DNA of 57,149 bases, the filler included, from Basidiobolus ranarum (Eukaryota), in the NCBI GenBank assembly GCA_040143965.1. It is 6 parts of 6 records of this genome, joined end to end, with 100 filler letters (N's around TTAATTAATTAA, not from the genome) between each part and the next. Parts side by side here need not be neighbours in the genome. Positions count along the whole stretch, not along the records: positions 9,566 to 19,025 come from JASJQH010000824.1; 5 more parts are not named here. One strand, written 5' to 3'. A program made the translations under genes and the position numbers. Positions 1,406 through 47,733 of this stretch are shown piece after piece (within the stretch, counting starts at the first letter, position 1; each line of letters begins with the position of its first letter). The notes beneath the pieces are model-generated. The model ran no database searches. It saw only the letters and a program-made list of their open reading frames with translations, and was not told the origin of the DNA.

Positions 1406-2869
1406 TTACAATTGCTTCATTAACCAGGACAACAAGTCCACCTTGGTCACCACATGAAGAACCTTAAGCTCAGCAGTAGAGATTTTCTCAAGATCAGCTG
1501 CACGCTCAGTAACAATGGCGGATGAATTGTTTTCGAAGAAACGAGACATTTCAGCAAGAGGAGTGTTGACGGAGATTTCGAAGAAATCTTTACCGACAGT
1601 ACTGAACTTGAACATCACTTGACTGACTGGGGCGTCACCGGTGATCTTGCCTGAGCTAACTTTGGAGAGAATATTACCCATAGTGACTATACCTACTACT
1701 CTTGAAGTTTCAGAAACAACGGGAAGTTGATCAAAGTGGTTGGTTTCCATAATGTTCAATGCTTCACGGCAAGTGGTGTTCTGAAGAGCTGTAATGGCAG
1801 CTGGGAGGTTCAAGTCCTTGATAGTAGCACCACCCCACTTCTCGGTTTGTTCGCGCTCTTCCTTTTGGCTGACGGAGTCAGTAAAGCCATTATTTTTCAT
1901 CCAATCGTCATTTAAGAACTTGGTCATGTAGTTACGAACTGAATCGGGTAAGATAACGACACAACGTTGTCCAGCCTTGAGTTTCTTGGCGGCTTTTACG
2001 GCGGCTGCCATAGCAGTTCCGGAAGAACCACCACAGAGTAGACCTTCTTCTTTAATTAAACGTCTGGACATGATAAAGGAATCCTTATCATTGCTCTTGA
2101 CCCAGGTATCAATGTACTCGCGCTGAAGAACATCTGGAATGAAATCATATCCAATACCCTCTACTTGATAACCAGTGACGTCACTCTCGTTCAAAGATTC
2201 GGGCAGGGCTAGAATAGATCCAAAAGGATCAACACCAACGATTTCAACATTGGGGCATCTTTCCTTGATTTTCTTGGCAATACCAGTGATGGTACCACCA
2301 GTACCAGCGCCAGCAACAATCATATCTACTTGACCATCACAAGCACGAAGGATTTCTTCGGCGGTACCTTCATAATGAGCCATTGGGTTGTTGGGGTTAA
2401 CATATTGATCCAAAATGACACTGTTTGGAATTTCCTTGTTCAAACGTCTAGCAACACCGATGTGAGACTCGGGGGCGTCCCAAGCAGCTTCAGTGGGGGT
2501 ACGAATAATTTCAGCACCCAAGGCCTTCAATACGTCGACCTTCTCTTGGGACATTTTTTCAGGAAGGGTAATAATAACCCTATATCCCTTGACAGCACCA
2601 GCGAGAGCAAGTCCGATTCCGGTATTACCAGAGGTTGGTTCAATAATGGTGTATCCAGGCTTAAGAACACCGGCCTTCTCAGCTTCTTCAACCATACGTC
2701 TTCCAATACGGTCCTTTACTGAACCACCGGCATTGAAATATTCACATTTGGCCAAAAGTTCGCATTCGAGTCCTTCGGACTTGGCGATTTTGTTGACACG
2801 TACAAGGGGAGTGTTGCCGATATTCTCGAGGATAGTATCCAAAATACGAAGTTCGTTTGAGACAGTCAT
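1406..2869 (-). CDS. CYS4: Cystathionine beta-synthase (PLP catalytic domain plus C-terminal CBS domain pair), intronless, 487 aa
   Basis: Motifs IGNTPLV, KCEYFNAGGSVKDRIG (PLP lysine), EPTSGNTG, GAGTGGT, YQVEGIGYDFIP and ILPDSVRNYMTKF, then a C-terminal FDQLPVV...VVTKVDLL CBS pair. No N-terminal heme-binding extension, as in yeast Cys4. Confidence 0.96.
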   Translation of the reverse strand: MTVSNELRILDTILENIGNTPLVRVNKIAKSEGLECELLAKCEYFNAGGSVKDRIGRRMVEEAEKAGVLKPGYTIIEPTSGNTGIGLALAGAVKGYRVIITLPEKMSQEKVDVLKALGAEIIRTPTEAAWDAPESHIGVARRLNKEIPNSVILDQYVNPNNPMAHYEGTAEEILRACDGQVDMIVAGAGTGGTITGIAKKIKERCPNVEIVGVDPFGSILALPESLNESDVTGYQVEGIGYDFIPDVLQREYIDTWVKSNDKDSFIMSRRLIKEEGLLCGGSSGTAMAAAVKAAKKLKAGQRCVVILPDSVRNYMTKFLNDDWMKNNGFTDSVSQKEEREQTEKWGGATIKDLNLPAAITALQNTTCREALNIMETNHFDQLPVVSETSRVVGIVTMGNILSKVSSGKITGDAPVSQVMFKFSTVGKDFFEISVNTPLAEMSRFFENNSSAIVTERAADLEKISTAELKVLHVVTKVDLLSWLMKQL

Positions 2870-3791
2870 TATGTGTTGCGATTTCTTACTTTAAAACACT
2901 GGGAATGAGCAATAAAGATGAAAAGGATGAAACGAATCCAGAGGCCGTCTGAGTATTTAAAGAATTAAGAATTAGCATTCTCACACTCTTTTCAGGCCAT
3001 CAGATTATTCTATGATGGGAGCCAATGAACACCCAGTCAGCTAATGGGGATATCCGAGTCCACCATAGGATGCATTTGTCAGTAATGCATGAACGCTTCA
3101 AATATATATCGCGATTGTATTGTAAACATATGTATACATCCATATTAATAATTCTCTTATGTCATGAATATTTACAATAGGACCAATATATATTTAAATG
3201 TAGAAAAAAAGAACAGGAGGTTTCTGCAGAATCGTGGAAATAACTACATGTTTGGATACACGCTCAACCACATCGATGTGTTAACTTTCTTAAGTAACAG
3301 GCCCAAATCTTGACAGTGTCTGCAGTTCCACAACAAATCAGTGCCATGTAAAAGGTATATTAGGAACACTGAATTTCGCATTTTCTCACGATTCATTTTT
3401 TTAGGGTTTGGTTGCAGCATTCTTCCACATCCCTTTTCGCATGTTCTTAGCATGCTATCAATTTTTTTCTCTACTGCTGCGCACTTTTCGGAATGCATAC
3501 CCAATAAGGTAGTTTCGAATGCGGTCTTTTTTGACAACGCCATTTCACAATACGATGGACAAATGGCGTCATTTAGGTTGTCCGATTTATTGGGAATTTT
3601 CAACCATTTACTGGTGATTTTGCACCACACACATACCCCTACACCCCCCACATCAACACTTCACATTCTTTTGTCAATATCGATAGCTAACAAGTGCATA
3701 TAAGCCATATGTAGATGGTTTATTTCATTACATAGATTGGTAACAAGGAAATGAAATTTTCAACGAGTAAAAAAGAATATTCCCCTAGCTT

Positions 3792-9465: not shown

Positions 9466-9565
9466 NNNNNNNNNNNNNNNNNNNNNNNNNNNNNNNNNNN
9501 NNNNNNNNNTTAATTAATTAANNNNNNNNNNNNNNNNNNNNNNNNNNNNNNNNNNNNNNNNNNNN
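9466..9565. other. Artificial contig linker N44-TTAATTAATTAA-N44
   Basis: Fixed 100-bp spacer whose core gives stop codons in all six frames. Confidence 0.99.
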
Positions 9566-12500
9566 AAGATTGTTATCTGTTTACAATCCCAATCCAGAGA
9601 TTCTCGGTACAGGACCCGTTTCTCTATTACACCAATTTTTCGAGAAGAGTGCACGGGAATTCCCCAACAAGCCCGCCTTGGAATTTGTTCATGCAATTTC
9701 TGAATCTCAATCGGATATAAGAGTATATTCGTACAGTGAGGTTAATCGCAAAGCAAATCAAGTTGCACATCTCCTCTTGAGTAAAAATCTTCAACCGGAA
9801 GCAATAATTCCTATTTGTTTTGAAAGGTCGCCAAGACTTTACATTGCTATTCTAGGAGTCCTAAAAGCTGGCTATGCCTATGTTCCTGTAGATCCCAAAG
9901 CACCTTTGGATAGAAAAACATATATGATGCTTGAAGTTGAAGCCAGTGTTATTCTCACATCAAAAGAACTAGCGGTTGATCTTGATGGAAACCTAGGAAC
10001 CAATGTGGAGATCATCACTTTAGAGGAAGTTGAAATGGCACAACAGCCAGATAACGACCCCCTAGTAGACATCTCACCCAATAATCTTGCCTACGTTTTG
10101 TATACCTCGGGAACTACCGGATTACCTAAAGGTGCAATGATCGAGCATCGCAATGTAGTTCAGTTCTTTGCGGCGGCACACCGTCTATTGACTTGGAATC
10201 CCAGCTCAAGATTCCTTCAAAATGCCAGCTTTATCTTTGACGTTTCTATATTCGAAATGTTCTTTTCGTGGAGTGTAGGCATCACGTTGATCGCAGCTAG
10301 TCAAGGAATCTTGTTAGGCAACCTCGAGTTACTCATCAACACTCTACAAATCACACACATAGCTATGACTCCAACGATGGCATCGATGATACGTCGAAGC
10401 AGAGTGCCAACAGTCGAAGCTTTTATTGCAGGTGGAGAAATGTTAACTCAGCAAGTCATTGAGGAGTGGGGAGGTGAAAATTCCTTATTCAACGCATATG
10501 GTCCCACTGAGGTTACAATCGGATGTAGTTTCCTTTGTAATGTATACAAGGGTGTAAAACCAAGTAATATTGGCAACATCATGGATTCTTGTTCTTGCTA
10601 CGTATTATCTCAAAAAATGGAAATTCTACCTCGTGGTAGTGTGGGAGAACTCTGTGTTGGTGGTTCCCAAGTTGCCAGAGGTTACCTCAAACGACCAGAA
10701 TTAACCGCAGAGAAGTTTATCAAGATTCCTGCTATCAGTGAGAGAATTTACCGAACTGGTGATCTGGTAAAGATTCATCATGATGGAGCCATTGAAATCC
10801 TAGGAAGAATAGACGATCAAGTCAAGTTGAACGGACTTCGAATTGAGTTGGGTGAAATCAACGCAGTTATGGCCAAATCGAATGATCTCATTAGTGGTGT
10901 AGTTACCTATGTTCTTAGAAACCAATGGCAAAGCAGGGATCAATTAGTGTCGTTTGTTGCCTGTGCTATAGATGATCAATCTGATTCACTTGTATTGTTC
11001 AGCGAAGGATCAGAGGCCGTAGCCGCAAAAAGCATCGTGAAGTCCGCTCTTGATGAAGCAACAAAGAAGCTACCACTCTATATGGTGCCTAGCTTGGTTC
11101 TGCCCATCAATAGACTTCCACGCGGTAGTACGAACAAAACCGATCGTAAAGTGCTTGAACAACTATACAATAGTTTGAGCTTAGAAATGATTCAACAAAT
11201 TTCATTAACTGAAGATGAAGAAGCAGATGAGGCAAGTATGTCTGAATTGGAAGTTTCCATTCGGGATATATTGGCAGAAGTTGGTGAACTTCCTCCAAGC
11301 AAAGTCAAGAGCACTACCTCCATTTTCCATCTTGGATTGGACTCTATTAGTGCTATCCGTGTGTCCTCCAGATTACGCTCAATTGGCCTGAATCTCAATG
11401 TAGCGGAAATTCTTCAACAACTCAACGTCAAGAATATGGCACGTTTGTTGAATGAAAGGGAAAACTCTTTACAAGAGTATGCTCCTACTGGTTCATTCGA
11501 AAAGGGTATTAAGCATCTTAGCAACCAATTCATTGAGTCCATACCCGAGTTGTTGAGTGTTTCCAATAACTCAATTGAAGCAATCCTGCCATGCTCTCCT
11601 TCCCAGATCTTCACGATTTCTTCTTGGCAGAATACCAATAAGACAAATTTCGTGTCATACTTTGCATTTGCAAGCTCCGAAAAGCTCAGCTCATCTCAAC
11701 TACAAGCCTCTTGGTTGGAATTACTTAAGAAAAACAGTATTCTCAGAACAGCATTTATTCCTACTTTGGACTTCAAAATGCCATTTGTTCAGGTAGTGTT
11801 GGAACAACCAGTTCCCCAGTGGACCTCTGAAGTTGTGGATCAAGAACAAAACTTAGCATGCATTCAGAATAGTGTGGTTAATTTAGCTTCAGCTCCAGTT
11901 TATCTCAGTCAGCCTCCTATTGCTGCTCATTGTATAGAATTTGTGAACAGTACTGTTCTTGTCGTCGGTATGCATCATGCTCTTTACGATGGCTGGAGTT
12001 TGCCTTTGATGATGTCAGAGTTAGAAAGGAATTATAATGGAATTGATCCATCATCCGATAGTCCCAATTTCACCAGGTTCCTCGACTATGTGTTTGCACA
12101 AGATAATGATACTCAACGTCAATACTGGCGCTCGTACTTAGAAGACAGTAAGCCATTAATGTTCCCACCAATGAATGTAGCTAATGCTGGCAAAGCACGA
12201 ACCTTTGTCATTGCCACAGACGCTTTAGATAATATTCCTCAATACGAAGATATTTGTCGGGAAAATCAAACAACTCTGCAAGCCGTTTTCTTAGCAGCCT
12301 GGGCGAAGCTACAATGCACGGAATTAAACTCGGAGGATTCACTCTTTGGTCTCTACCATTCTGGTCGCTCTATTCCGGTTGAGGACGTTGGCAGTCTTAT
12401 GGCACCTTGCATCAATATGCTTCCTTTGTATGTGAAGAATGCTAACACCATGGATGTCATCGATCTTTCTCGTAGAATCCAAGAGGATTTGGCCCGCCAG

Positions 12501-12878
12501 ATACCTTTCCAACAGGCATTCATCCACGATATACAAAACACCATTGGTCTTGGATGCGACCCTCTTTTCAATACCTATGTGAATTATCTCAAATTCCCAG
12601 CAGAAAGTAAGGTGCCTGCTCTCTTTGAGGTGCTTGATCTTCTATCATACAGTGATCGTATAAAATCCGTTCAGGAAGCTGCTTATTCAGACAACAACCA
12701 GAATCTCCCGAACCCAGCCGCCACTTCCATTAGAAGTGATCTTGATATTGAAATTGCTGTCAGGGGAGATCAAGCATGTGTAGGTATCTTCTGCCCACCT
12801 CATATCCTTTCTGAAGCACAAGCAATTGAAATGATTCAGAAGTTGTGTAATATTGTGCGTGATTCCCTCTCTGTTTAA
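9566..12878 (+). CDS. Nonribosomal peptide synthetase, 5'-truncated; terminal A-T-C module, ferrichrome/SidC-type siderophore synthetase-like
   Basis: A-domain cores LAYVLYTSGTTGLPKG, FDVS, NAYGPTE, YRTGDL and GRIDDQVKLNGLRIELGEI; T domain IFHLGLDSISAI; C domain HHALYDGWS; no thioesterase. The frame is open to the contig edge with no ATG before the A domain. Confidence 0.93.
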
Positions 12879-14217
12879 TCGTTTGCTTAATCCACTGGTT
12901 AACGAATAATGGATTTAGATATTCTGTGTATTCAATAAGTTTATATATTACTAAAATTTATAAATAAACATTTAATTCTACTCTTGCAAGTTTTATCCTT
13001 TCGTGTTTCCAATAACTTCTTATAGTAGCAAGTAAAAATCAACATTGAAAATGGTTGTTATTTAAACTTTGCACTATTTTGCTATTATTTGAGTTCAAAA
13101 CAACTCCAAATATCTAGATGAATATAAGGTTATCATTGGCGTAACTAGTATAAATGTGAGATGTAACGAATTACTTGCAGAAGTGTTCGCTAAAGAATTG
13201 AAAATGACTCTTTATTCTTACTGTGGCAATTTTGTACTTATACGATAATAATTAACTTGTATAGCCATCGGAAAATCGATTGTTACAAGGCATTGGAGTT
13301 GAATTGTTTTCGGATGTTGATCAAACATATGTAACAATTTTTGTTTCAATGATCGTTGCATATACTCAATAGACAACAACCTTTTAAAATTGATCCTTTA
13401 AAGATACGATTATACATATCGGGAACAGGCGCATTATATTTTGTCTGCTGTACCATTGATTTCTTGCATGAAAATTGACCAATTAGTATTCAGTACGATA
13501 TGAGAAGTATCCGTCTGAAAGTTCAACGAATGGTAGGTTTAGGATACTACCCAGAGCCCTCATAAAACCAGGATAGTAAGAATCTGTTATCTGGGTTGTT
13601 ATAATACTCAATTCGTGTAACAACGCAAAAAATTCGAACTCCTAGTTTGGATAACTGGGCAAGTAAATAAAATAGACATACTCTGAATGAAAATAGAATA
13701 TTACTGACTTTCCCTTACTTTTATATAGAATCGTGTAATCTAGTTAGGTTGTTGCATCTAATTATGGCACTTAGGCCCACCAAATTTCAGTTCTCATTAG
13801 AGAATTACTAGCAGCCTCGTTTAGGAAGAATGTTGTATGATATTTGCCACTATATTATTTTGGCCCACCGAATCAGTTTCAGTATACAGGTAAAGTAGGT
13901 CGCACTGATGATTATGGCACTTACAACCAAATGTAGGAATAGTCTCTCTTACAGATGTTGAAGAATTTATCTATTGACAAGTAAATGACCGAAATAGTGG
14001 CATTTATCAAATAAATGATATATAATTTAGAGGTACATGGTCACGTAATACATCGCTACGAGTGAGTTGAAGTAAAAGCCCCATGTTCATATTATTATAG
14101 GATGGAACAGTATTTGATCTCTTGTGCTTCTCAAAATTTCATCAGTTGTACTCTCTCCAATGGACTCATCTTTTTCTAACGTTATGAAGCCTCCAAACCT
14201 AGATATTCGAATGGCCT

Positions 14218-14660: not shown

Positions 14661-16088
14661 TATGTTTGTAATCACAGAGGGTTGCAAAGCTTTCTGCGTC
14701 CAACACACTCACTCAGCTGGACCTGGTTTACGAGCAAATGTTTCTACTGTTTCCTATAAATACTCAATGAGAGTCGGTTGGAATATTACTTACCTGTATC
14801 GCACATTTAGTTCTTTGCTTAAACATATGTCAGGCAAACCTCTGCTTTAATGGCATAGTATGACCAGTGAAGCATACTTGGAACTTAGTGGAGTAACTGA
14901 GCCACTCTATTCATGAGTTCTCACATGACAAGCGTTTATAACAATAACCAGTTGAAAGTTCTTGCTCATGCGCAGATTGTAGACACTACGTGAAATAGGC
15001 GGCGGCAGTCCTTAATTAGAGTTCTTTTTAGCATATCTGTTGGTAGTTATGTCACTGTAACGAGCAAATGCCATCAATCATCATCCTATTCACTAAGCTA
15101 TGACAAGTCAAGTTCTGGTTAATGAAAGCAGCTTGATAGCAAAGGTGCGTAAAACAGTTCAGGATACTTCATTAGAATTGTCCAAGCAACTGATGGAGGT
15201 AATTTTCTCGATTCTGTTGCTGAGAAACAATTCTGGAGTGGCAAGTATGATTGAGTAATAGGCAAGTAGTGACTATGCTAGATTAATTAATAGCACACTG
15301 AATGTAAGTTTCCCAACATCGAAATGAATCAAGATGACTTTCTGGAACACATCATCTCCATTGGCTGCACTTCATATTAGATGAGATTGAACTCAATTAC
15401 TATGCAATCTGCGAGATGACTAGTCGGTAAAAAGTGCATAAACCATCAAAACGAATCACACCAAATTTGTATCTGGGGAAGGTCTAGCATACCGATCCAC
15501 TAGCAATCCAAACAAAGCTTATAACATTGTCATTTAAACATTCAGCTAGCTCACACGTCAAACTCGATTAGTATTACGTGGTAAGTAATTCTTCTTCCTT
15601 CATTATGCAAATGATGTGTGGTTCAGCTCAGCACAATGTTAACAACCAGAGCTAATAATTGGGTGCCTGAGTCATTTCTGGTGCGAAGCTAACTGAGAAT
15701 CTTGATTGGCCACGGCCAAGTAACGTCACTGATGACCAACCAAGATACCAAGAGGTTTTACAAATCCACTGTGAGGTGTCAGAGTGATTATGGGCTCACC
15801 ACTCTAATAGCGTCATTGCAAACCTCTATGTTGTGAGACTACTTCAGGATTTCGGCTTTTCTCAGGATGGAGAAGCCCGACCTCCTTTGTTTACTTTCAT
15901 CGATCGACATCATGTTGAATAGTATTTTATGAGACGAATCCAATGATTCAAATGACACGTAGGCTGTCTGCTTTACCTTTATGAGTTGAGGAATGTCATC
16001 AATATTGCGGTGTAAGCACAAGTCTTATTTAAGCCCATGATATAGTGGAGAAGGGATATCAATTAGTTTCTGTATCCTTCTACCCACC

Positions 16089-17228
16089 ATGAAATCATTC
16101 TTACATGTATCGATCGTCGTATCAACTATGGCTTCGTTAGCCCAAAGTGTTCCGTTCAGCCATGGGATGCTACAGCAGTCGCTGTACCAGCCCATTCAAT
16201 GGGCGTTCGATTCGATGTTTGACGAACCTCCAAAGAATCAAAAAACTTTATTGGACACCATTATTTGGGACCCTCAATTTAAAGAATTAGCGGATATCGT
16301 TAACAACGATGAAGGATTACGAAAAATATTAAACAATCCAGATGCACAACTTACTTTGTTTGCCCCAGTCAATGAAGCTTTTGAACATCATAAGAATCAT
16401 CCGCACCAGAAGGAGCCAAGTAAAGAAGATATATATAACTTGATTACATATCACACACTCTCCGATGCCCTCAGTTCAAAGAAAATCGCGAAATCTCACA
16501 TTCTGGGTACTCAACTTAATTCTCCAGAATTAAACGACAAACCAACCCCTGTACGTATCGGACATTGGAAGGGTGATACCTACATCAATTTCTCCAAAGT
16601 TATTAAAACTGACATTCACGCCACTAATGGAGTTATTCATGCCATTAACCACGTTCTCATCCCGCCTCCATCGGTATTTGATGGCCTGCATTTAATTCCA
16701 ACTGGCTTCAGTACTTTTACATCTGCTATTCATGTCAGTAATTATGGTGGAGACTTTGAGGGTTTTAAAGCAGTAACCGTATTTGCTCCAACCAACAGAG
16801 CTTTCCGCAAACTTGGATACAGAAATTTGGCAGAGATCTTCGCACCCGATGCACGTGAAACCTTGAAACAACTGGTCCAGTACCATGTATCACCCAATTT
16901 GGCCTACACAACAGAAATTTTCAAGAATGGACATAATGCCGGATTAAGATTGCCCACTAACCTAGGAGAAGGATATGATTTGGACATCAAAGGCACCTCC
17001 ACGAAGGACCAACACTATAAAATCACTGTCAACAAAGCCAACGTCATGGTATATGATGTTATTGCCAAAAATGGTGTAGTTCACGTTATTGATACCGTAC
17101 TCATTCCTCCTCATCATGACGAAAATGTTAGGCGTCTTTTCACACCCATGGAAGATGAAAGCGAATGGGCTGATGAGCAAACAGTGAAAGATCATTTCAA
17201 CTCCTTACCAGAGAACTGGTTCCTTTAA
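16089..17228 (+). CDS. Secreted fasciclin (two FAS1 domains) protein, intronless, 379 aa
   Basis: Signal-peptide-like N-terminus; two sets of H1/H2 motifs: TLFAPVNEAF..YH..NGVIHAINHVLIP and TVFAPTNRAF..YH..NGVVHVIDTVLIP. Confidence 0.93.
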   Translation: MKSFLHVSIVVSTMASLAQSVPFSHGMLQQSLYQPIQWAFDSMFDEPPKNQKTLLDTIIWDPQFKELADIVNNDEGLRKILNNPDAQLTLFAPVNEAFEHHKNHPHQKEPSKEDIYNLITYHTLSDALSSKKIAKSHILGTQLNSPELNDKPTPVRIGHWKGDTYINFSKVIKTDIHATNGVIHAINHVLIPPPSVFDGLHLIPTGFSTFTSAIHVSNYGGDFEGFKAVTVFAPTNRAFRKLGYRNLAEIFAPDARETLKQLVQYHVSPNLAYTTEIFKNGHNAGLRLPTNLGEGYDLDIKGTSTKDQHYKITVNKANVMVYDVIAKNGVVHVIDTVLIPPHHDENVRRLFTPMEDESEWADEQTVKDHFNSLPENWFL

Positions 17229-17784: not shown

Positions 17785-19025
17785 TTATACTGGCAATTTG
17801 TGTTCCTTAATTGATGGAGCATCCGTTATTTGTTCTTCGATAAAATTAGGAATTGGTCCCTTGAACCATTTTCTGGCACTTAACAGCCACCAACCAATAC
17901 AAAATACTAGCACCACAAGAACGGCTACCACAGCATAGTTCATATTTTCCGAGGTAACAGGGCTACGACTTGGTAATACGAAGAGTACGTGATAAAGGTG
18001 ATCCATATGCAAGCAACCCACCCAATGACTAGACTAGCTCGACCAAGATTGAAGGGTCCTTGTTCAAAAGTATTTCGGCTTGTTGTTATTCTAAAGAAAA
18101 TTGGTATTCCATAAGAAATGGAGAGACCAATTGTAGCGATAGATGTGACTGCTGTGAAAGCAGTGGAGCTTCCTAGGGACGGAAGTCCAAGTATTCCAGA
18201 CAAAACAATACATAAATAAATCGCATTTCTAGGGATTCCAGACTCTCCCGAAGTTTGGTGCCAAAGATTGGAATAGGGCAGAGCGTTGTCTCTGGAAAAG
18301 GCATATACCATACGGGAATTGGCTGTGACACTGGCCATACCACAAAAGAATTGTGCACCGATGATGATGATCAGCAGTAAAATAGCACCTGTATTACCTG
18401 CAGAGTCTAAGAATATCTGTGCTAGAGCTACTCCAGTCTTACTTCCAATGACTCCATCGTAATCTTGAATACAGAATGTGATCCCGATGAGGAAAGCCCA
18501 ACCTACTACGAAGGAAACAACGATGGACATGACAATACCTACGGGACCACCAATCTCTGCTTTTTTCGTCTCCTCAGTCATATGTGCACTGGCATCGTAG
18601 CCCGTCATGGTGAACTGCGACATAAGCAATCCTAGCAAAAATGTATAACCAGCATTCTCCCAACCAGTATAGTTGGCATAGTGAGTGAACACAAAAGAAG
18701 CAGGCTGCCGTGTTTTGGTAGTACTCACTACTGTAATGATGATAATGATGGTACCAAAGATATGCCACCATACAGATACCGTATTGAAGATATTCACAAT
18801 TTTGATAGCGTACACATTTAATACTCCATGGATCAGTAATAAAGTAAAGTAAATAACCAGTATTATCCCTGAGGTAGGCTCCCATCCAGTTCCGATACTC
18901 ACACAAGAGGAGATCATCAAAGCAAGCCCATAGTCAATACCAGCAGTGATGGCAACCTATTTTTGTTTCAAGCTGAGTGAGTACAATGTAGACAAATGAT
19001 CAAACGGTTTGTATTCTTTACTTGT
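17785..19025 (-). CDS. APC-family amino acid/GABA/choline permease (UGA4/BAT1-like), 5'-truncated, with a 1-bp frameshift near 17988
   Basis: GYDASAHMTEET, ANSRMVYAFSRDNALP, SIATIGLSISYGIPI, GPFNLGR and, in the shifted frame, VLFVLP..PVTSENMNYA..WWLLSARKWFKGP. Intron at 19021-18957. Confidence 0.9.
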
Positions 19026-19125
19026 NNNNNNNNNNNNNNNNNNNNNNNNNNNNNNNNNNNNNNNNNNNNTTAATTAATTAANNNNNNNNNNNNNNNNNNN
19101 NNNNNNNNNNNNNNNNNNNNNNNNN
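19026..19125. other. Artificial contig linker
   Basis: N44-TTAATTAATTAA-N44. Confidence 0.99.
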
Positions 19126-28572: not shown

Positions 28573-28672
28573 NNNNNNNNNNNNNNNNNNNNNNNNNNNN
28601 NNNNNNNNNNNNNNNNTTAATTAATTAANNNNNNNNNNNNNNNNNNNNNNNNNNNNNNNNNNNNNNNNNNNN
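28573..28672. other. Artificial contig linker
   Basis: N44-TTAATTAATTAA-N44. Confidence 0.99.
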
Positions 28673-38115: not shown

Positions 38116-38215
38116 NNNNNNNNNNNNNNNNNNNNNNNNNNNNNNNNNNNNNNNNNNNNTTAATTAATTAANNNNNNNNNNNNNNNNNNNNNNNNNNNNN
38201 NNNNNNNNNNNNNNN
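38116..38215. other. Artificial contig linker
   Basis: N44-TTAATTAATTAA-N44. Confidence 0.99.
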
Positions 38216-47633: not shown

Positions 47634-47733
47634 NNNNNNNNNNNNNNNNNNNNNNNNNNNNNNNNNNNNNNNNNNNNTTAATTAATTAANNNNNNNNNNN
47701 NNNNNNNNNNNNNNNNNNNNNNNNNNNNNNNNN
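47634..47733. other. Artificial contig linker
   Basis: N44-TTAATTAATTAA-N44. Confidence 0.99.

Follow-up and report, generated by a model that had tools for sequence, protein, structure and literature searches.

What kind of enzyme is encoded by a truncated nonribosomal peptide synthetase (NRPS) gene whose only visible module, of adenylation (A), carrier (T) and condensation (C) domains, is followed by a stop codon? This question is raised by a locus of Basidiobolus ranarum (assembly GCA_040143965.1). It lies in a stretch of 57,149 nucleotides (nt; hereafter the window) made of separate contigs, ∼9.4 kb each, joined through 100-nt spacers. The locus begins with the first bases of contig C824 (G000:C824). 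Sequence comparisons suggest, at a probability of roughly 0.75, that the gene encodes a six-module colinear synthetase of a ferrichrome-type product, with one A domain per residue rather than iterative loading.

The truncated gene and its six-module orthologue

A single stop-free frame extends from position 9567 to a TAA codon at 12876–12878 (1,103 amino acids, aa) and contains no start codon. The frame follows directly on a spacer; the 5′ end of the gene was therefore cut off by the assembly. Pfam analysis yields one AMP-binding (E 4e-72), one PP-binding (1e-9) and one Condensation domain (7e-31), and no others, which confirms an earlier sequence-only reading of the protein as A, one T, one C and stop. 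The core motifs (i.e. YTSGTTG, FDVS, NAYGPTE, YRTGD, GRIDDQVK, the A10 Lys, LGLDS and MHHALYDG) are intact. No thioesterase follows the last C domain, and the tail past the C core measures 91 aa, compared with 74–171 aa in 11 other relatives.

The orthologue in B. meristosporus CBS 931.73 is ORY07062.1 (P0122), a protein of 6,834 aa that is labelled ‘amino acid adenylation’ and has the layout (A-T-C)x6. The window protein is 65% identical over 1,101 aa to its residues 5732–6832 (i.e. module 6) and 36–39% identical to its other five modules. This module 6, with the pocket code DVFAVGAIGK and the same C-terminus, is the sister of the window module in both A and C trees (100/100). The intact form of the gene very probably has six modules. 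ORY07062.1 is complete in the database, whereas the B. ranarum counterpart was recovered as part of module 5 and module 6 only.

Module 5 is represented by contig C3489 (G000:C3489; 2,311 nt, all coding), which carries the end of A5, T5 and C5 and is 70% identical to residues 4983–5729 of ORY07062.1. In that numbering the gap to the window frame is two residues, and the leftover bases of C3489 and C824 are frame-compatible. The adjacency of the two contigs rests on homology and on a relative's contig, because no exact sequence overlap joins them. This contig comes from a comparison of four sequencing runs (X1–X4) over positions 9566–13500, where X2–X4 stem from one study and X1 is possibly the assembly's source. 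Run X2 gave a 7,579-nt contig that is ∼96% identical to the window (135 differences and 0 gaps over 9566–12975) and reaches 4,168 nt further upstream. A second A core occurs on it 3,297 nt upstream, a distance that exactly matches the 1,099-codon A5–A6 spacing of ORY07062.1. Runs X3 and X4 are likewise gap-free across the stop. Among the differences to these relatives that were listed, 31 of 40 fall at third codon positions (200 more lie beyond them). Since the relative's contig is gap-free through the stop and has A5 upstream, nothing was collapsed here, and independent contigs dispose of the concern that T-C repeats had been lost in assembly.

Two other kinds of enzyme would also present a single module in the window: a monomodular or short A-T-C enzyme that stands alone, and an A-(T-C)n enzyme with repeats collapsed in the assembly. 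A single-A Type VI synthetase has been described (PMC2644324). Both variants are refuted by the orthologue, the gap-free contigs of three other runs and the placement of the C domain as C6, not C4; the lack of a start codon and the adjoining module 5 argue in the same direction, so that we consider them extremely improbable. The sequence-only reading had left open a shorter enzyme, which is hereby rejected, and the terminal module of a fully modular ferrichrome synthetase, which is borne out by an orthologue with six consecutive A-T-C modules and hydroxyornithine-type codes in slots 4–6, and by module 5 in the genome.

Adenylation pockets, precursor genes and predicted product

Pocket codes were obtained from motif anchoring and from a 157-domain alignment. 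The numbering is validated because the same alignment columns reproduce the NPS2-type pockets in Table 2 of PMC2644324. The code of the window A domain (A6) is DVFAIGAIGK, as previously read by eye. Its proposed likeness to a DVLxIGxIGK-type code holds for Sib1, NPS2 and Sid2-A2 but fails for SidC, as A3 of Aspergillus nidulans SidC is DPLSTGAIGK (same table). A6 shares eight of 10 pocket positions with FgNPS2 A3, from which it differs by Phe239 and Ala278; Gly301, Ala322, Ile330, Gly331 and Lys517 are kept, and position 229 is Asn.

The codes of A1–A6 in ORY07062.1 are DVFEIIAIHK, DVFNIAANVK, DVYDYISIAK, DVFDVGAIGK, DVCAVGAIGK and DVFAVGAIGK. A1 equals Sib1 A1 at 10/10 positions, while A2, A3 and A4 agree with A2–A4 of ChNPS2 at 6/10, 7/10 and 7/10, respectively (Table 2, PMC2644324). 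The predicted substrates are Gly for Sib1 A1, Ser for NPS2 A2 and Gly for NPS2 A3 (PMC2644324). A4–A6 resemble pockets for N5-acyl-N5-hydroxyornithine (AHO), which would reproduce the order of ferrichromes, three small residues and then three AHO.

The B. ranarum genome also contains ornithine monooxygenase genes, which had been proposed as a check: all 12 of 12 candidates were scored and gave three matches, two of them full-length. The two are fusions of an ornithine N5-monooxygenase with an Acetyltransf_8 domain, lie on contigs other than the NRPS contig, and are 56% and 42% identical to each other in their two halves. The same fusion occurs in six of the best eight homologues, from B. meristosporus (ORX77994.1) and chytrids; no paper on it was found by title or abstract start.

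In the assembly line that we propose, the fused monooxygenase-acyltransferases would make AHO; A1–A3 would load Gly, Ser or Ala, and Gly; and A4, A5 and A6 would each load one AHO onto their own T domain. C5 would then link the pentapeptide to the residue on T6, and C6 would close the ring head to tail. Cyclisation by a terminal C domain is known for fungal NRPSs. The enzyme is predicted to yield a cyclic hexapeptide containing three AHO, similar to ferricrocin or ferrichrome C.

With at least 79 A-domain matches (79 of 79 scored, among 158 candidates), this genome is not poor in NRPS genes, contrary to what had been assumed from early-diverging fungi in general. NRPS expansion in Basidiobolus has been described (PMC7466969). 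Many other NRPS modules of B. ranarum (e.g. on C7091, C6910, C7068 and C645) have a weakly scoring C-like domain directly after T, followed by a normal C domain. The extra domains may be epimerase domains.

Placement in the ferrichrome synthetase family

A search over proteins of 1,932–5,000 aa returned chytrid, Saitoella and ascomycete proteins of ferrichrome-synthetase type as top matches, and a second one, extended to 8,255 aa, yielded much longer relatives. Domain maps of 230 proteins were made with profiles built from the retrieved sequences. Five of the 230 have a ferrichrome-type (A-T-C)x6 layout: ORY07062.1, two Spizellomyces and two Rhizophlyctis proteins. Three chytrid proteins have (A-T-C)x5, and the commonest layouts are ATC-ATC-TC-ATC-TC-TC (122) and (ATC)4-TC-TC (57). 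Two further (ATC)6 ascomycete proteins (P0161 and P0195) were set aside, their codes being unlike those of the ferrichrome family. Other chytrid relatives (P0127–P0131, P0003, P0004 and P0013) have at most five complete modules and divergent last-two pockets, and two chytrid lineages of ferrichrome-type enzyme seem to exist. A group of 29 proteins of ∼3,660 aa (P0234–P0260, P0270 and P0272) has the layout ATC-ATC-TC-ATC and ends after C4; these are possibly gene calls cut at an intron, or a real shortened type.

Trees were inferred under LG+G4 without mixture from 18 proteins and the C3489 piece, with two outgroup rows (modules of P0161). Basidiomycetes, Sib1 and SidE are not among the rows, and the SidC lineage consists of two fragments assigned by their code. 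Module numbers in the five-module chytrid proteins count back from the C-terminus, so that the first module of each bears a wrong label. In the 94-row C tree, all slot-6 C domains (17/17, window C6 included) form one clade with a Shimodaira–Hasegawa-like approximate likelihood-ratio (SH-aLRT) support of 99, and the slot-6 C clade is complete (8/8; 100/99) in a careful C tree of 45 rows. A6 falls, as the sequence-only reading anticipated, inside the ferrichrome clade, in a group of 32 rows (100/94) that also contains the AHO-type A4 domains from the two Dikarya lineages. The A domain and the terminal C domain place the module within the ferrichrome synthetase (NPS2/SidC) clade.

Starred support joins Basidiobolus A1, A2, C1, C2 and C6 to the corresponding slots of ascomycetes. 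We also tallied the best-matching Basidiobolus domain for each domain of 182 six-T proteins, which are ascomycete or unassigned and far from independent. Same-slot matches were found for A1 in 182/182, A2 in 145/182, A3 in 60/60, A4 in 108/182 and A6 in 1/1, and for C1 in 169/182, C2 in 152/182, C5 in 131/182 and C6 in 182/182; the same slot has the plurality in 10 of 11 slots. A Basidiobolus-only clade of A4, A5 and A6 is rejected by the approximately unbiased (AU) test (p-AU 6e-5), and A5 and A6 did not arise by copying of A4 within the lineage. When chytrid and SidC rows are unconstrained, Basidiobolus A4 sides with NPS2-type A4 (66/96). The best tree joins A5 with A4/A6 (99/91), and the split of modules 1/3/5 versus 2/4/6 proposed in 2008 is not rejected (p 0.235); a revision of that odd/even duplication scheme, being unsupported at this value, was dropped.

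The window A6 is the slot-6 A domain that nearly all Dikarya enzymes lost, and does not correspond to the iterative last A domain (slot 4) of NPS2 and SidC. A six-T ascomycete protein of Saitoella coloradoensis (BFZ64108.1, P0232; Taphrinomycotina) has the layout (ATC)4-TC-ATC and has therefore kept A6, whose best Basidiobolus match is the window A6 (48%). A-domain relics before T6 occur in Tuber aestivum, three Lipomyces and Nowakowskiella (P0135, P0200, P0206, P0209 and P0132); their top match is a slot-6 A domain in four of five cases, weakly (42–54 bits). Neolecta gave no significant A-relic match before T6.

Evidence against the reading and alternative explanations

Several observations weigh against a colinear six-module ferrichrome synthetase. 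With regard to substrate, Basidiobolus A5 and A6 carry Ala at position 278, where NPS2 A4 and 10 of 15 other slot-6 domains have Asp; for fungal domains the 10-residue code is a poor predictor of substrate (PMC2644324); and one database preprint gives rhizoferrin as the siderophore of a Basidiobolus species (10.1101/2025.04.30.651379). A changed substrate of A5 and A6, giving a ferrichrome with mixed acyl groups or a hexapeptide that carries fewer than three hydroxamates, would fit the codes without Asp278 (DVCAVGAIGK in A5, DVFAVGAIGK/DVFAIGAIGK in A6) and Asn229 of A6, while A4 keeps DVFDVGAIGK. It would also fit the divergence of several chytrid slot-5 and slot-6 pockets and the presence of two dissimilar fusions in the genome. 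We nevertheless regard it as unlikely, given the five residues that A6 keeps, its 8/10 agreement with FgNPS2 A3, and AHO domains of the SidC/Sid2 lineage that also lack Asp278 (G, S, S and C; Table 2, PMC2644324).

With regard to the gene itself, modules 1–4 were not found in the assembly, where all 126 A-core and 91 C candidates were scored with short queries and the best 16 of 170 candidates with long queries; this concerns the assembly, and the strain itself may carry them. Among 154 loci compared with ORY07062.1, identity exceeds 54% only in C824, C3489 and a 37-aa piece on C3678. The latter is a C3 fragment fused inside a high-copy repeat with at least 44 matches (best 40 of 2,070 candidates scored), and the junction is either a chimeric contig end or a broken gene copy. 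Because modules 1–4 were not found, the six-module claim rests on the orthologue and, in this strain, on modules 5–6 only. No Basidiobolus fragments were present among the best 120 of 1,445 proteins shorter than ORY07062.1.

The C3678 junction and the missing modules would be expected if the gene were broken upstream in the sequenced strain, leaving the module as a recent relic despite an intact orthologue, an explanation compatible with the other readings. However, the 65-Mb assembly is split into 13,754 contigs, the run with at least 99% identity to the window has a depth of ∼5 and covers it in short pieces, and the junction lies within the repeat, as expected of a chimeric contig end. Modules 5–6, moreover, are free of stops and frameshifts. 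A broken gene therefore seems improbable to us.

With regard to family history, C3–C5 have no resolved placement in either C tree (C3 branch support 22), and A3 and A4 likewise have no resolved slot placement. In the tally, C3 finds the same slot in 3/182 proteins and 123 favour C4; C4 wins with just 84/182, and 74/182 A4s favour A6. For a clade comprising the full set of eight slot-6 A domains, the AU test gives no more than a lack of rejection (p 0.40), and it rejects a clade restricted to the A4s of Basidiobolus and all Dikarya plus two from chytrids (p 0.002). In the six-module enzymes of Spizellomyces and Rhizophlyctis (one each tested), same-slot matches to ascomycetes number 4/11 and 3/11, which means that module shuffling occurs in this family.

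The six-A layout could accordingly be a secondary re-expansion or a mosaic, with A5/A6 acquired anew through old duplication or gene conversion, or with the gene transferred from one lineage to another. The slot matches of the two chytrid enzymes, the nesting of Basidiobolus A4 among chytrid slot-2 domains, the rejected broad A4 clade and the lack of a resolved placement for C3–C5 are in line with this. Against it stand the rejected Basidiobolus-specific triplication of A4–A6, the same-slot best matches of A5 and A6 in a chytrid five-module enzyme and of A6 in Saitoella, the slot-6 affinity of four of the five relics, weak as it is, and the starred grouping of A1, A2, C1, C2 and C6 with ascomycete slots. 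We judge a re-expansion rather unlikely. Instead, the six-A layout was probably retained from the family's ancestor and not rebuilt, with A5 and A6 lost in Dikarya. The earlier term ‘ancestral-like’ can stand for the layout and for slots 1, 2 and 6, but C3–C5 lack a supported placement.

A broader scenario is tentative, and we hold it to be possible rather than probable: (i) Basidiobolus may preserve, slot for slot and in a living enzyme, the six-module ancestor from which all fungal ferrichrome synthetases derive; (ii) the family may predate the chytrid–Dikarya split; (iii) Saitoella, Tuber and Lipomyces may represent successive stages of A5/A6 loss; and (iv) A4–A6, fed by the two fusions, may place different AHOs at fixed ring positions. 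If so, A4–A6 would program acyl-hydroxyornithine positions, which an iterative enzyme cannot do.

Features of the window and related contigs

The A5–A6 spacing of the run X2 contig equals that of the spliced protein, so this contig lacks the intron predicted in C3489. The contigs of runs X2–X4 stop at ∼12939–12975, 60–100 nt past the stop codon, whereas run X1 continues. Together, the missing intron and the contig ends weakly hint at transcripts or at intron loss.

Table 1. Coordinates of the synthetase module, its assembly context and related loci in B. ranarum (plain numbers are window positions)
Feature	Position	Strand	Remark
5′-truncated NRPS frame, module 6 (A6-T6-C6-stop) of a predicted six-module ferrichrome-type synthetase	9567..12878	+	
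A6 adenylation domain, code DVFAIGAIGK	9627..11171	+	predicted AHO activation; no Asp278
T6 carrier domain	11250..11459	+	LGLDS at 11331
C6 terminal condensation domain	11571..12602	+	HHALYDG at 11970; predicted ring closure and peptide release
AATAAA, possible polyadenylation signal	12963..12968	+	85 nt past the stop; weak hint
Predicted phase-0 GT-AG intron (63 nt) within C5	C3489:177-239	-	keeps frame open
C3 fragment, 37 aa, 81% to ORY07062.1	C3678:1-111	-	joined to the middle of a high-copy repeat
Ornithine N5-monooxygenase + Acetyltransf_8 fusion	C1845:1-1989	-	one frame
Ornithine N5-monooxygenase + Acetyltransf_8 fusion	C1362:1016-3350	+	predicted 61-nt in-frame intron between the two
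Artificial spacer 44N-TTAATTAATTAA-44N	9466-9565	.	DNA to its left (C823) is an unrelated contig, not the gene's upstream region
Identical artificial spacers (n=5)	9466-9565, 19026-19125, 28573-28672, 38116-38215, 47634-47733		flanks are not genomic neighbours
Fasciclin-domain gene	16041-17228	+	downstream on the same contig
Amino-acid permease gene	17940-18956	-	downstream on the same contig
PALP + CBS protein, cystathionine beta-synthase-like	1406-2890	-	unrelated contig

Comparison with known synthetases

What is new here is a six-A architecture for a ferrichrome-type synthetase outside Dikarya, within a known family. No extant six-module member of the family is described in the literature searched (titles and abstract starts; most subscription papers lay outside the scope), and no paper was found there that pairs ferrichrome with Basidiobolus, a ferrichrome NRPS with Spizellomyces or a ferrichrome synthetase with Saitoella. 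In PMC7466969, 16 non-Dikarya A domains are placed in a SID clade and Basidiobolus siderophore activity is reported from a chrome azurol S (CAS) assay, and the words ‘ferrichrome’ and ‘ornithine’ are absent from that text; its Figure 4 and supplements may already depict the six A domains of this gene. The gene is a candidate for this unexplained activity. No ferrichrome synthetase was reported from the chytrid and zygomycete genomes surveyed in PMC2644324. The family now reaches beyond Dikarya with a present-day (A-T-C)x6 enzyme that is for the most part colinear with ascomycete NPS2, and the three separate AHO-type domains of this enzyme offer material for learning acyl-group selectivity.

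The six extant types (I–VI) have one to four A domains and all end in an A-less T-C (PMC2644324). The window protein ends in a complete A-T-C and its orthologue has six A domains; the enzyme is therefore a member of the clade but of none of the six published types. The enzymes of Spizellomyces (KNC98875.1 and TPX70384.1) and Rhizophlyctis (KAJ3053452.1 and KAJ3033198.1) also have (A-T-C)x6, an orthologous C6 and DVFD[VI]GAIGK-type slots 4–6; by contrast, their slots 1–5 have another history, and their pockets in slots 1–3 differ from those of Basidiobolus. By the slot tally, the Basidiobolus protein is more colinear with ascomycete enzymes than the Spizellomyces one. Sid2 of Ustilago maydis, compared through the paper only, is of Type I, (ATC)3-TC. 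It also has more than one complete AHO-type module and is the authors' possible intermediate, but it differs in its four C domains and its A-less T-C end (PMC2644324).

Cochliobolus NPS2, a Type V ferricrocin synthetase of the NPS2 lineage with the layout (ATC)4-TC-TC, resembles the Basidiobolus enzyme in its six T and six C domains, its orthologous C6 and its order of pocket types in slots 1–4. Unlike Basidiobolus, it lacks A5 and A6, and its A4 has been proposed to load T5 and T6 iteratively (PMC2644324). The Saitoella enzyme ends in a complete module 6, as in Basidiobolus, but lacks A5. Together with this one-A-lost enzyme, the Basidiobolus synthetase offers a natural series on how a colinear assembly line turned iterative, a shift whose mechanism was called unknown (PMC2644324). 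A hexamodular ancestor of ferrichrome synthetases has been proposed, with credit to Schwecke et al. (PMC2644324); this reconstruction has the same six A-T-C modules as the Basidiobolus enzyme, with three small-residue-type pockets followed by three of AHO type.

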